NCBI GenBank assembly: GCA_011364925.1
Contig: RDOA01000014.1
Location: forward strand, 14,532 to 78,531
Origin: Promethearchaeota archaeon
GTDB taxonomy: Archaea; Asgardarchaeota; Lokiarchaeia; Sigyniarchaeales; SOKP01
Length of the DNA: 64,000 nt
Reading direction: 5' to 3'
Part shown: in pieces, positions 23,241 to 36,735 of the stretch
Layout: every line of letters starts with the position of its first letter
Numbering within the stretch: the stretch's first letter is position 1
Made by a program: the position numbers and the translations under genes
The notes under the pieces: generated by a model
The model's database searches: none
What the model was told of the DNA's origin: nothing
What the model saw: the letters and a program-made list of their open reading frames with translations, nothing else

Positions 23241-24023
23241 CTATTTCTTTATTTCGCTATATTTTTTCATTATTAAATTACAAACACTCGAGATGGGATT
23301 GATTTTTTGTTTCCAGTTTGAAAATTCTGGAAATGTACCTGCATCCACCACATATAATTGATTAGTTTTATTCTCTCTTACAAGATCTAAATGACCAAAT
23401 GATAAATTATACTTATTTTTCCATTTTCTTAGATATTCTTCAATTTCTTCGTCAAATTCGATTTTTATCATTTGACTATGCTCATTTGATAAAGGTTTTT
23501 TCTCACAAATACAGGAATTATCCCCTATAAAGTATGCTAAATAATGCACTCCATCAATATATTTTTCTAAATAGAGGGGTTCCTCGAAATCTTTATTAAT
23601 ATCTTTCGTGCTGTTAAGAATTCTAATATCATTACTACCTGATCCAAAAATTGGTTTAGAAATTAGGGGAAAATAGGAATTCTTGAGTAACTTTTTTAGA
23701 ATTTTAAGATATCCCATATATACTTGAGGATATGCGAGGCCAGTATTTTTAATAGCATAATACGATTCAATCCGATCTTTATGAGTATGACTTAGACTCG
23801 TATTTGGTATAACTGGAACCATATTTGCTTCTAAAAAATACCCAGCATAAAGATAAAGCATACGTTTTGACTTCAGTATATAAAAATCGTTCTCTAAGAG
23901 TGAATCGTTTATACAAAGATTATCTGCCGTAAAAATTTTAACTTGATGGCCTATATTTTCGTAGTAATCCTTTATTTTCCAAGTGAAACCTCCAGTTCTT
24001 TTCGATAAAATCCCTATCTTCAT
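23241..24023 (-). CDS. ATP-grasp protein, divergent ITPK1/RimK-like
   Basis: HKDR, FPLISKPIFGSGS, LEKYID, FGHLDLV...VVDAGTFPEF. Confidence 0.7.
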   Translation of the reverse strand: MKIGILSKRTGGFTWKIKDYYENIGHQVKIFTADNLCINDSLLENDFYILKSKRMLYLYAGYFLEANMVPVIPNTSLSHTHKDRIESYYAIKNTGLAYPQVYMGYLKILKKLLKNSYFPLISKPIFGSGSNDIRILNSTKDINKDFEEPLYLEKYIDGVHYLAYFIGDNSCICEKKPLSNEHSQMIKIEFDEEIEEYLRKWKNKYNLSFGHLDLVRENKTNQLYVVDAGTFPEFSNWKQKINPISSVCNLIMKKYSEIKK

Positions 24024-24036
24024 TTCTTTATTAAAT

Positions 24037-24864
24037 TCAACCTTTAGCTTGTTTTATTAAGTAATCTACTACATATTTTGGTCCATTCTTAATGTAATTA
24101 AAATTAGGTGAAGAATTTATATCAGATAAATAAAAGGCACCGTTTTCTAATTTTAGAAAATCCATGGAACAAATTTGTAATCCAATTGCTTCTGCCGCTT
24201 TAAATGCAATTTCAGTCAATTCTGGAACATTTTCAATTTCTATCCTAGATTCCATCTTGTTAGGATTTATTAACACAGGTACTTGTTTATAGTAAAATAT
24301 GTCCTCACCGATAATGTATATCTTAAATTCCCATTTACTCCTCACAAAATCCTGAAAATATACATGTGAATATTTAGGTTTAATGCCACTGGATTCATCA
24401 ATAGCTCGCATATCACTAACTTCAAAAAACCCTTCCTTTTCTTTAATTTGAGGTTTGAAGGCATAATTTTTTTGATCAATGATATTTTTCATAATGTATT
24501 CCTTGTAAGGAGGAGAAGTCCCTATAGGATTTAATGTGAAACTGGGAATGCAAATACCCGCTTTTTTTAAATAAACACTATTCAAAAATCTATTAAACGC
24601 GAGCGAAATGCTTTTCGATGAATTAATAACAGGAATGTTAGTTTCTCTCTCGATTAATTTAACCAGACTTATAATCAAATCTCCTTTTGCTTTAACAAAA
24701 AATATGTTTTCATTAAATTCATAATGAGAGAAATCTATAAAGTATTCTTCTTCAAGATATATAGATACTTCTACTTTATTCTTGCAATAATCCAAAAATT
24801 GGGATGATTTCTTTTCCAAATGATAATTGTCAGTAATCAAACCAATTTTTATCAAATGACTCAC
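24037..24864 (-). CDS. ATP-grasp protein, ITPK1-like inositol phosphate kinase candidate
   Basis: PVINS..FNR, FQDFV, EFKIYIIGE, MDFL...SDINSSPNF. Confidence 0.7.
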   Translation of the reverse strand: MSHLIKIGLITDNYHLEKKSSQFLDYCKNKVEVSIYLEEEYFIDFSHYEFNENIFFVKAKGDLIISLVKLIERETNIPVINSSKSISLAFNRFLNSVYLKKAGICIPSFTLNPIGTSPPYKEYIMKNIIDQKNYAFKPQIKEKEGFFEVSDMRAIDESSGIKPKYSHVYFQDFVRSKWEFKIYIIGEDIFYYKQVPVLINPNKMESRIEIENVPELTEIAFKAAEAIGLQICSMDFLKLENGAFYLSDINSSPNFNYIKNGPKYVVDYLIKQAKG

Positions 24865-25012
24865 AATATTCTAAGTTATTTGGGGAAAATTGAATATTTT
24901 GTATTAGTGATTAGTATAATTCTAATTTACATTAAAAGAATTGCGTGAATCAATAATTACATTTATATATTTTAATTTGTTTTAAAGAAATCAAATTGAT
25001 CGGGTTTTTTAA

Positions 25013-34437: not shown

Positions 34438-34460
34438 ATAAAATTATTATCAATTAATAA

Positions 34461-35735
34461 TTAATACTCTAACTTTAAAGTCTCCTTTACTTTCATAAAT
34501 ATCGGAATTGAACCGATAAAAAAGAAGGGTCCTAAAAGAAATATCCATTGAATTCCAAATAGAGTTGCTACTATCCCTCCTGCGATGGAACCAATAATTT
34601 GAGAGGCAGTATTAACTATGTTTAATATTCCTGTAAATTTACCACGCTTTTCTTCAGGTAACAAATCTTGTGACCAAGCATTAAATGGCGTCATCATCGA
34701 TAATAATCCTACTAATACAAAAGGTAATCCAATCATAAATAGAATAAAGTTTCCCAAAGCAAACGGCATTATAGAAAATCCTATACTAATTAAAATAATT
34801 ACCAGAGGAATGTATTTTTTTCTACCAAATTGATCTGATAATTTACCTAATGATATCGTCGCTACGAATACAACTGGAAATGCGACGCCTATTCCTAATA
34901 AGAGTTGCCATATTTCTAATCCTTGCCGTTGGATGAAGATCATTAGAAAAGGCATTATCGAACCAATCCCCGATTGGAAAATTACTAATGCTAAAAGAAT
35001 CTTGAAGAATTCTTTTTGAGATTTCAACTCTTTCAAATTAAAAGTTTGCCTTATTTCATCGAGAAACCTTTTCTTCTCTGGAAATTCTGAAATCGGTCTT
35101 TCTCTTATGAATGTAAAACCTAAAGTACCAACTGACAAAAATACAAATCCTCCAATAAAAAAGATGAAAATATGACCCTGTTGACTTATAATTATGTTGT
35201 TAATATCCCGAGGATCATTGACCCCAAATATTTGACTTCCGAGCATAAAAAACGCAACACCGACTATTAAACCTATATAGCTAATTGAGTTTACTATTCC
35301 ATTTGCCCTACCTCTTTTTTCAACCTCAAATGTATCGGGGATAAGAGATCTTTCAGCAACGAGAAACGCATTGGAAGCTATTCCGATAATCACCACATCG
35401 ATTATTAAACATAGAATATAATTCCCGGAAAAACCAAAAAAGATCATTGCTATACCAGCAATCGTTCCACCAAATAATAAATACGGTCTTCTACGCCCAA
35501 ATCTAGTTCTCGTATTATCACTTATAATACCCCATACAATCATGATTATAAGTCCCATCGCAGCTGATAAAGAGACCATCAATGAGATGTATAGTTCTGG
35601 TAAAAAAAGGACATCATACAAGTACGTATTAAAAAAATTTTGTTCAAAAAAAAAGAAAAGATAATCTCCCAAATATAGTAAACCAATAAAGAATATCTGT
35701 CTTCGAAGAAATTTGCTAAATGTTTTTTCATTCAT
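34461..35735 (-). CDS. MFS transporter (sugar/glycoside type)
   Basis: About 12 TM segments; GIISDNTRTRFGRRRPY and GKLSDQFGRK motifs. Confidence 0.88.
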   Translation of the reverse strand: MNEKTFSKFLRRQIFFIGLLYLGDYLFFFFEQNFFNTYLYDVLFLPELYISLMVSLSAAMGLIIMIVWGIISDNTRTRFGRRRPYLLFGGTIAGIAMIFFGFSGNYILCLIIDVVIIGIASNAFLVAERSLIPDTFEVEKRGRANGIVNSISYIGLIVGVAFFMLGSQIFGVNDPRDINNIIISQQGHIFIFFIGGFVFLSVGTLGFTFIRERPISEFPEKKRFLDEIRQTFNLKELKSQKEFFKILLALVIFQSGIGSIMPFLMIFIQRQGLEIWQLLLGIGVAFPVVFVATISLGKLSDQFGRKKYIPLVIILISIGFSIMPFALGNFILFMIGLPFVLVGLLSMMTPFNAWSQDLLPEEKRGKFTGILNIVNTASQIIGSIAGGIVATLFGIQWIFLLGPFFFIGSIPIFMKVKETLKLEY

Positions 35736-35841
35736 TTTGAAATTCTAACGCTTTAATTATATTTTTAAAATGTAAAATGAAAAACAAAGTAAGTATTGAA
35801 GGAAAATTTAAGAATATTCTGCGCTTCTTTAAAGTTAATTT

Positions 35842-36735
35842 ATGATAAGAAATGTCGTTTTTTCAGCAAGGGAGGATCATGATGTAGTGAAAGGCGTGAT
35901 AAATAGGCTTAAGAAATTACCTAATATTAATTTGCATTTTCATGACCCCACAAAACAGTTTTTTAATCTTTCTAGAATGCCTAAATCAATTAAAGAAGCT
36001 GATTTAATAATTGTTAAGGTGAGAAACGATTGTTCGATCGATTTATTACATTATGCGAAAACAAATCATATTCCTACGCTACATAGTATAGATACAGTGC
36101 TTATGTGTAAGAATAAAATATCCCTTGACTATGCTCTTAGAAAAGTGTTATCAACTTATCCTACAATTAGAAAAAAGTTTTCATTTCCTAACTCTTGGAA
36201 TAATAACATTACAGATGTTAATGTTTTTAAAAAATGGGCTTCTAATAAACTTCCAATTGTAATTAAAAGCCATTACCAACACGACAAGTATAATAGATTC
36301 AACTTTCTGGTCAGAAAGATTGAAGAGATTGATACATTTTGCGAGAGATATAAACATCTTTTATATTACGATGTATACATACAAAAATTTATCGAGTGTG
36401 ATGGTTTTGAAAGAAAAGTTTATGTGATAGGAGAAAAAGTTTATGGAATCATCCGAGAAAATCCGATTTACATATTTTTGCGAGACAAACCTAACCAGAT
36501 TAATGTAGATGATATTAAAAGAAAGGAATTTAAGATATCTGATGAAATTAGAGAGTTAGCTGAACTTTTGGCTCATGAGCTTAAACTTAAAATATTCGGT
36601 TTCGATTTAGTAAAACCTGTAGATAAGGATCGTTATTATCTAATTGATTTAAACGATTTCCCTGGATTTAGAGGAATAAAGAATGTAGAAGATCAAATAA
36701 CTAATTGTTTGCTTGATGTTATTAGCAACTTGTAG
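35842..36735 (+). CDS. ITPK1-like ATP-grasp kinase
   Basis: LPIVIKS, IQKFIE, ERKVYVIGE, LKIFGFDLV, YYLIDLNDFPGFRG. Confidence 0.75.
   Translation: MIRNVVFSAREDHDVVKGVINRLKKLPNINLHFHDPTKQFFNLSRMPKSIKEADLIIVKVRNDCSIDLLHYAKTNHIPTLHSIDTVLMCKNKISLDYALRKVLSTYPTIRKKFSFPNSWNNNITDVNVFKKWASNKLPIVIKSHYQHDKYNRFNFLVRKIEEIDTFCERYKHLLYYDVYIQKFIECDGFERKVYVIGEKVYGIIRENPIYIFLRDKPNQINVDDIKRKEFKISDEIRELAELLAHELKLKIFGFDLVKPVDKDRYYLIDLNDFPGFRGIKNVEDQITNCLLDVISNL

Follow-up and report, generated by a model that had tools for sequence, protein, structure and literature searches.

Gene content of the locus

The window analysed here, a 64,000-nucleotide stretch of a Promethearchaeota archaeon genome (contig RDOA01000014.1, assembly GCA_011364925.1; ~33% GC), contains four open reading frames encoding ATP-grasp proteins, which we denote AG1 to AG4, and one homologue of myo-inositol-1-phosphate synthase (MIPS), denoted INO1. 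The list of open reading frames and the Pfam matches confirmed that the four ATP-grasp genes bracket INO1, as a preliminary description of the locus had proposed (Table 1). The arrangement of AG1 to AG4 and INO1 is not due to chance, since it was found again in dozens of species. The motifs read from the translations also agreed with the earlier statement that three of the four proteins carry the K-(V/I)-Y-(V/I)-(V/I)-G and D-x-N-x-x-P motifs: AG2 has FKIYIIG and DINSSP, AG3 has YKVYVVG and DINDFP, and AG4 has RKVYVIG and DLNDFP. At the corresponding positions AG1 has HYLAYFIG and VVDAGTFP, with both kinase motifs missing.

Table 1 Features of the inositol-phosphate locus, in positions of the window
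Feature	Position	Strand	Description
AG1	23241..24023	-	260-aa ATP-grasp protein, degenerate active site
AG2	24037..24864	-	275-aa divergent ATP-grasp protein, K126/K181/D235/D248-x-N250 intact; candidate third kinase
AG2/AG3 intergenic region	24865..25012		Divergent; TTTATATA box and G-rich ribosome-binding stretch 5' of AG3
AG3	25013..25924	+	303-aa ITPK1-family kinase (Pfam PF05770, 36.3 bits)
Insertion block	25929..29229		Glyoxalase (-), GrpB (+), 246-aa HAD hydrolase (+), LuxE/PaaK-like adenylating enzyme (+); Pfam
HAD hydrolase of the insertion	27084-27824	+	246 aa; Pfam
INO1	29301..30392	-	MIPS-type cyclase, QLDWGG subfamily specific to the module
945-aa protein	30568..33405	+	Possibly GH57/GH38-like; variable accessory gene
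Zn-dependent dehydrogenase	33424..34437	+	Pfam ADH_zinc_N and ADH_N; variable accessory gene
MFS transporter	34461..35735	-	Pfam MFS_1, 1.9e-40; variable accessory gene
AG4	35842..36735	+	297-aa ITPK1-family kinase, clearest member (Pfam PF05770, 44.9 bits)

AG3 and AG4 belong to the ITPK1 family

Pfam and profile-versus-PDB searches place AG3 and AG4 in the ITPK1 family. Both proteins scored above the gathering cut-off of PF05770 (Ins134_P3_kin; 23 bits). When family profiles were searched against the PDB, ITPK1 was the best match of AG4 (1.3e-11; best ligase 2.5e-8) as well as of AG3 (2e-6; best ligase 9e-3). The ITPK1 catalytic set is invariant in the family alignments of AG3 (K142, K193, D251, D263, N265) and AG4 (K142, K192, D255, D269, N271). 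In the alignment with human ITPK1, residues K142, H147, R152, K192, R205, D255 and D269/N271 of AG4 correspond to K157, H162, H167, K199, R212, D281 and D295/N297, respectively, and the inositol-phosphate contact residues found by HMMER alignment are R152 (H167), R205 (R212) and K59 (K59). Orthologues of AG4 were present in 23 of the 24 genomes of the genus.

The preliminary description had acknowledged that the family itself is not new. Desfougeres et al. 2019, PNAS (PMC6900528) report four ITPK1 homologues, LcIKA-D, that flank IPS genes in Lokiarchaeum, worded there as 'two pairs flanking two IPS genes', and a 2021 review restates these homologues. In plc1-delta yeast, LcIKC gave partial rescue of IP6 (PMC6900528). 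LcIKC is described with Arg156 (PMC6900528), which matches R156, a residue invariant in the alignment of the AG3 family; AG3 is thus a probable orthologue of LcIKC. A contig of the Loki's Castle project (PRJNA259156) has the gene order FKBP, HAD (322 aa), AG1, AG2, AG3, INO1, AG4, BacA and low-molecular-weight phosphotyrosine phosphatase (LMW-PTP), and PF05770 matched only the AG3 and AG4 types on it. Given this match pattern and the shared R156, the four published LcIK genes most likely represent two loci of AG3 and AG4, in which AG1 and AG2 went unrecognised.

Conservation and distribution of the cluster

A search with the AG3 profile gave 67 loci, each representing a species, in which linkage was assessed. 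AG3 adjoins INO1 in 57 of them, and AG1, AG2, AG3 and INO1 occur together in 49, most of the others being cut by contig ends. INO1 and AG4 are both present in 45 loci and directly adjacent in 17 of these. Synteny extends over about 25 kb around the cluster in the whole family, with FKBP and a radical-SAM gene at one end and UppP, LMW-PTP and isochorismatase at the other; the UppP/BacA, LMW-PTP-family and isochorismatase-family genes lie 3' of AG4 (positions 36739-38818 of the window) in nearly every species. Furthermore, three archaeal contigs of 46-51% GC, one of them labelled Thermoplasmatota, carry AG2>AG1>INO1 as an operon opposite to AG3; their flanking genes are unrelated, and AG4 is absent. 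Their ATP-grasp proteins share 28-40% identity with those of the window, and their INO1 shares 61-64%. The linkage of the ATP-grasp genes to INO1 is strong, and the synteny check suggested earlier came out in its favour, both in the 49 species loci and in the rearranged order of the three unrelated contigs. In the latter (L089:9620-10396, L090:10860-11648, L091:10852-11649), AG3 is followed by a gene for a xylose-isomerase-like TIM barrel (PF01261; IolE, IolI, IolH family), a hint that this form of the module may include additional cyclitol chemistry.

Among 251 sampled genomes of the phylum, those with PF05770 genes were 50 of the 54 in the window's family. The genes also occurred in one of five genomes of a second family and in none of the 191 genomes from 26 other families, a distribution that bears on how firmly ITPK1 counts as Asgard inheritance. 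Outside the archaea, five records of Actinomycetota and Ktedonobacteraceae (L098, L099, L101, L102, L105) contain an AG3-like gene (30-43% identity, in the C-terminal half) directly followed by a gene with a weak AG4-like match, and these pairs are possible tandem ITPK-like genes in bacteria.

The homologue records derive from metagenome-assembled genomes of Lokiarchaeota/Promethearchaeota. They are annotated as 'RimK family alpha-L-glutamate ligase', 'ATP-grasp domain-containing protein' or 'hypothetical', in line with the earlier suspicion of mis-annotation as RimK. One record titled 'Candidatus Nanopelagicaceae bacterium' (L033, DATKTW010000070.1) has the gene order of the window with 64-83% protein identity, and the titles of other near-identical loci name Hodarchaeota, Hermodarchaeota or Thorarchaeota; such record labels look unreliable.

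AG1 and AG2 are a conserved pair of odd ATP-grasp genes

The preliminary description had proposed four ITPK1-like kinases. This holds for AG3 and AG4 and is plausible for AG2. It is doubtful for AG1. Both AG1 and AG2 have LysX/ArgX/RimK-type ligases as their best matches in Pfam, in the PDB and by fold. In the proposed comparison of Ins134_P3_kin with RimK, AG3 and AG4 passed the former, but AG1 matched ATP-grasp_3 and reached just 22.2 bits for Ins134_P3_kin, and AG2 matched RimK with no Ins134_P3_kin match.

Several results weigh against a kinase assignment of this pair. In the AG1 family, ATP-grasp_3 matched 50 of 55 proteins and PF05770 seven; in the AG2 family, RimK matched 33 of 57 and PF05770 nine (E ≤ 0.01 for PF05770 in both). 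The best PDB match of both family profiles was ArgX (3vpb), at 5.9e-6 for AG2, with Entamoeba ITPK at 7e-3, and at 9e-6 for AG1, with no ITPK1 at E ≤ 1. The AlphaFold models of AG1 and AG2 were confident (pLDDT 91 and 93, respectively) and lay 3-5 Z units nearer to LysX/ArgX/RimK than to ITPK1. For AG2, the Z scores were 24.0 to LysX (root-mean-square deviation (rmsd) 3.1 Å, 257 aligned residues), 21.0 to PPIP5K2 and 20.2 to maize ITPK1; for AG1, the score was 25.4 to LysX/ArgX (rmsd 2.5 Å, 250 aligned residues), with no ITPK1 among the best 50 matches. The structure prediction suggested earlier as a check against ITPK1 gave LysX/ArgX/RimK as the nearest folds of both proteins. The fold search itself (Foldseek, VIA-align) was rejected as a kinase-versus-ligase test of AG1 and AG2, every ATP-grasp family scoring high.

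The active sites of the two proteins differ from each other. All five catalytic residues of AG2 (Table 1) are invariant in its family alignment. In AG1, the ATP-binding Lys is retained, as is a KPxxGSGS loop of the ligase type, but L162 stands where its paralogues have the Lys equivalent to K199, and the D-x-N motif reads D227-x-G229, with G229 conserved without exception in 55 sequences. AG1, AG2 and AG3 have conserved basic residues at places similar to the ITPK1 contacts (K18, K59, H167, R212), the residue-level alignment covering AG4 alone. The Arg (on the D-x-R strand) and E-x-N pair of the ligases is absent from all of AG1 to AG4, and all four fall far below the cut-offs of the NCBIfam rimK_fam/LysX models, the best score being that of AG2 (48.5 bits vs 143.4). 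Hhalign comparisons draw AG1 and AG2 closer to AG3 and AG4: AG4 matched AG2 at 1.4e-19, AG3 at 1.3e-19 and AG1 at 5e-17, and AG1 matched AG2 at 1.3e-13. The genome's own single true RimK was matched at 1.3e-10 by AG2, 4.3e-9 by AG4 and 6.6e-5 by AG1; this comparator is one single sequence, which weakens the comparison. In its residues and its model, AG2 combines a scaffold like that of LysX with an active site of the ITPK1 type.

To place the pair, we compiled 165 sequences comprising the AG representatives, 126 matches of an exhaustive search with the AG2 profile, and the genome's RimK. In this set, the states of two active-site positions are sharply coupled: Lys goes with D-x-N in 93 sequences and Arg with E-x-N in 41, and mixed states are few. 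The Arg and E-x-N state comprises all 40 ligase-type matches and the genome's RimK, and AG2, AG3 and AG4 have invariant Lys and D-x-N in common, which upholds the distinction drawn earlier between ITPK1 signatures and the D-x-R and E-x-N of ligases. The trees, which include no verified eukaryotic ITPK1 sequence, united all Arg/E-x-N sequences in one clade without the four AGs (FastTree SH-like 99; IQ-TREE SH-aLRT 96). AG2 fell into a clade of Lys/D-x-N proteins supported at 97, with AG1 as its weakly supported sister (78). However, approximately unbiased (AU) tests did not reject trees in which either the AG2 clade or AG1 adjoins the ligases, and such trees scored slightly better (p-AU 0.71), a further point against the pair being kinases. 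As to a grouping with RimK/LysX ligases, named earlier as what would speak against the proposal, the ligase clade excludes all four AGs, and the AU tests permit a position next to it for the AG2 clade or AG1. The deep branching order of the AG groups and the ligases is not settled by the trees.

Because the best Pfam, PDB and fold matches are ligases and the AU tests cannot separate the two proteins from ligases, AG1 and AG2 are not demonstrably ITPK1, and the trees cannot place either of them. A constraint joining the AG2 rows alone to the ligases was rejected (AU p 1.4e-5), a result that we discarded as trivial as the close relatives of AG2 were left outside the constraint. Among the 126 nearest matches of the AG2 profile, Pfam assigned RimK 76 times and Ins134_P3_kin 58 times, figures that are totals alone and not per protein. 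The contexts of four distant AG2-like proteins (P0250, P0254, P0261, P0268) were uninformative, as the contigs were short or the neighbourhoods unrelated, and INO1 was not found nearby.

AG2 lies 13 nt upstream of AG1 in the window, and the two genes overlap by 4 nt in distant loci. A model of the AG1-AG2 complex speaks for binding between the two proteins; it reached an ipSAE of 0.89, against 0.00 for the best of three controls; this mark is attained by 58 of 80 solved complexes and by 2 of 110 mismatched pairs. Three runs had at least 97% of contacts in common, with partner pLDDT of at least 89. AG1 is a probable non-catalytic or altered partner of AG2. The predicted interface is formed by the N-terminal domains, like that of ligase dimers, and for this reason the result may reflect the generic N-domain dimer mode of ATP-grasp ligases.

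INO1 and the inositol metabolism of the genome

INO1 passed Pfam Inos-1-P_synth (74 bits; cut-off 27) and is the sole PF01658 gene of this 100%-complete genome. It matched the MIPS of M. tuberculosis (1gr0) at 4e-75 over its full length (residues 4-357), and its second-best PDB match was a five-membered-cyclitol-phosphate synthase (4e-40). The canonical QLNxGGNxDF segment is absent from INO1, which reads QLDWGGSSDF in the window. QLDWGG..DF was present in all 60 module-linked INO1 copies with a readable motif, the overall form being QLDWGG(S/C/D)xDF, and module-linked copies of Promethearchaeota also have DGNNSAG, the canonical form being DSPNSAG. At two loci (L068:12231-13391 and L080:2290-3444), an adjacent paralogue, 37-38% identical, keeps QLNIGGNGDF and DSPNSAG. 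Because the module copies carry QLDWGG and the adjacent paralogues the canonical motifs, the MIPS of the cluster is, by its sequence, a distinct subfamily. With QLDWGG in place of the canonical QLNxGGN, the product of INO1 is not certain.

The genome also encodes one IMPase-family protein and six CDP-alcohol transferases. No IPK-type kinase was found in it, and the clustered route to InsP5/InsP6 that had been proposed is accordingly unsupported by gene content as far as InsP6 is concerned, unless an AG protein provides the 2-kinase step. A search for IP5 2-kinase (PF06090) gave zero matches, but the controls were equally silent, so that this search was uninformative.

Accessory genes

The preliminary description had listed the neighbouring HAD phosphatase, polyol dehydrogenase and MFS transporter as possible turnover and transport parts. 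These genes are not conserved. Among the 67 comparison loci, the HAD, GrpB and LuxE genes of the window were found in none and the glyoxalase in one, showing that the glyoxalase-GrpB-HAD-LuxE block is a lineage-specific insertion between AG3 and INO1, outside the conserved module. In the 45 loci holding INO1 and AG4, the window's HAD was again absent (0/45), and the genes between the two were variable (dehydrogenase 2/45, 945-aa protein 5/45, MFS 17/45). The dehydrogenase has a weak IolM-like NCBIfam match. The 945-aa protein had no sequence match in Pfam, NCBIfam or the PDB; its language-model features lie near clusters of GH57/GH38-type glycoside hydrolases (scores up to 0.96), which is a lead only.

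A different HAD hydrolase of ~322 aa lies directly 3' of AG1 in 42 of 53 loci (e.g., L108:1265-2233), forming an AG2-AG1-HAD operon. It is missing from the window's genome, where the best match has 30% identity over 120 residues, and FKBP abuts AG1 in the window, with no HAD between 23213 and 23241. This HAD has been lost from the genome. In the divergent AG2/AG3 intergenic region, the TTTATATA box is conserved in an alignment of ten orthologous regions, in which only an ordinary TATA box and the ribosome-binding stretch were seen.

Interpretation of the locus

We favour, with moderate confidence, the reading that the locus is a Lokiarchaeal module for lipid-independent inositol-phosphate synthesis, in which an AG1-AG2 heterodimer stands beside the AG3 and AG4 kinases. 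The cluster probably serves one Loki archaeal family for making phosphorylated inositol. INO1, as a MIPS-type cyclase, would convert glucose-6-phosphate to Ins(3)P (myo-inositol 3-phosphate), and AG3 and AG4 would phosphorylate Ins(3)P stepwise to higher inositol phosphates. AG1 and AG2 would be a co-transcribed pair of divergent ATP-grasp paralogues; AG2, with its full catalytic set, probably adds a further phosphate or differs in positional specificity, and AG1, in which the catalytic Lys and Asn are lost, is probably a non-catalytic or substrate-binding partner in the heterodimer. The HAD/GrpB/LuxE block, the dehydrogenase, the 945-aa protein and the MFS transporter would lie outside this core. 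This reading starts from the observed gene identities, motif states and conservation of the arrangement, and from the published yeast result for an AG3-type gene; the substrates, the products, the kinase activity of AG2 and the AG1-AG2 pairing are what we infer. Against it, the activities of the window's proteins are predictions from sequence and models, and published kinase activity is confined to LcIKC in yeast, which by sequence is the probable AG3 orthologue (PMC6900528).

In a rival reading, AG3 and AG4 alone are inositol-phosphate kinases, and AG1/AG2 make up a LysX/ArgX/RimK-like carboxylate-amine ligase with a different chemistry, which may, for example, attach an amino acid or a peptide to an acceptor that is either derived from inositol or unrelated. 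Such a ligase would explain why both proteins find their best matches among ligases, whether in Pfam, in NCBIfam, with PDB profiles or by fold, why AG1 keeps the KPxxGSGS loop, and why the AU tests permit both beside the ligase clade. However, AG1 and AG2 are without the Arg and E-x-N pair present in 41 of 41 ligase-type sequences, their curated ligase family scores stay far under the cut-offs, and the gaps of 13, 27 and 148 nt beside the two genes leave no space for a LysW-like carrier gene. AG1 and AG2 also accompany INO1 even where AG4 and all other neighbours differ. We consider a ligase unlikely. It is distinctly less probable still that the substrate of the module is some cyclitol phosphate different from myo-inositol 3-phosphate, with INO1 as a specialised MIPS-fold cyclase whose product the ATP-grasp enzymes phosphorylate or modify. 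The uniform QLDWGG..DF of the 60 readable copies beside the canonical motifs of the L068 and L080 paralogues, the cyclitol synthase as second-best PDB match of INO1, and the IolE/IolI-family TIM barrel after AG3 in three distant loci would fit such a substrate. Yet INO1 is nearer to true MIPS than to the cyclitol synthase, it is the only PF01658 gene of a complete genome that has an IMPase and six CDP-alcohol transferases, and an AG3-type gene gives IP6 from myo-inositol phosphates in yeast (PMC6900528).

The clustering could also be an inherited gene order with no common pathway behind it. As the ~25 kb around the cluster are syntenic across the whole family, conservation within the family proves little and is weak evidence for a common pathway. 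However, INO1, AG1, AG2 and AG3 stay together on the 46-51% GC contigs in another order and between unrelated flanks, and the variable accessory genes enter only between INO1 and AG4, so that we give mere inheritance of gene order hardly any credence.

Beyond the lipid-independent module itself, a bolder proposal can be offered only tentatively: AG2 and AG1 may form a kinase-pseudokinase heterodimer. This would be a kind of inositol-phosphate kinase not recognised before, standing midway from LysX-type ligases to ITPK1, and would supply a step out of reach of ITPK1-type enzymes, for example the 2-position or the first phosphorylation. INO1, AG1, AG2 and AG3 would then make up a mobile cassette of archaea, present outside the Asgard group as well. 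If this were true, transfer instead of vertical descent to eukaryotes would need considering, since PF05770 occurs in one Asgard family and one other genome among those searched.

Inositol polyphosphates were long held to be a eukaryotic hallmark, and Lokiarchaeal ITPK1 genes have been cited as evidence for such chemistry before eukaryotes. The window adds nothing to the claim that this chemistry predates eukaryotes. Of interest, if confirmed, would be an AG1/AG2 pair that accompanies a MIPS gene even outside Asgard archaea, a distinct MIPS subfamily, and ITPK1-type genes confined mostly to one Asgard family (50/54) in the sample.

Comparison with known systems

Among solved structures, LysX/ArgX and RimK (3vpb, 3vpd, 5k2m, 5zct) come closest in fold to AG1 and AG2 (Z 24-25, rmsd 2.5-3.1 Å, 250-257 residues). 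They resemble the pair in size, in the glycine-rich loop of AG1 and in the N-terminal dimer interface predicted for AG1-AG2, but differ from AG2 in having Arg instead of Lys and E-x-N instead of D-x-N; AG1 and AG2 are also without a LysW or S6 context. The kinase domain of PPIP5K/Vip1/Asp1 (3t9b, 9gr8, 8e1h) is likewise an ATP-grasp inositol-phosphate kinase, and its Z score of 21.0 to AG2 (rmsd 3.2 Å, 261 aligned residues) lies just under those of the ligases and slightly over that of ITPK1. The PPIP5K kinase domain also uses D-x-N. However, AG2 has no significant sequence-family match to PPIP5K (E 0.16) and is without a fused phosphatase domain.

Eukaryotic ITPK1 (human 2qb5/2odt, maize 7tn5, Entamoeba 1z2n) has an ATP-grasp fold like the AGs. 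The catalytic Lys, K199, R212 and D281/D295/N297 of ITPK1 have equivalents in AG4, and the pair of K and D-x-N is also found in AG2 to AG4. In contrast, H167 of ITPK1 is Arg in AG4, and the equivalents of K199 and N297 are missing in AG1. The archaeal proteins are also shorter (260-303 aa) than eukaryotic ITPK1 (about 320-345 aa), with similarity mainly in the C-terminal half.

LcIKA-D, from the same phylum, are like the window in having ITPK1-type ATP-grasp genes on both sides of a MIPS gene, but the accessible text of PMC6900528 makes no mention of the AG1/AG2 pair, the HAD 3' of AG1 or a QLDWGG INO1. The conserved AG1/AG2 ATP-grasp pair seems undescribed, and it lies beside a core that was published in 2019; the locus of the window is one more instance of the Lokiarchaeal ITPK1/IPS cluster already described in print.

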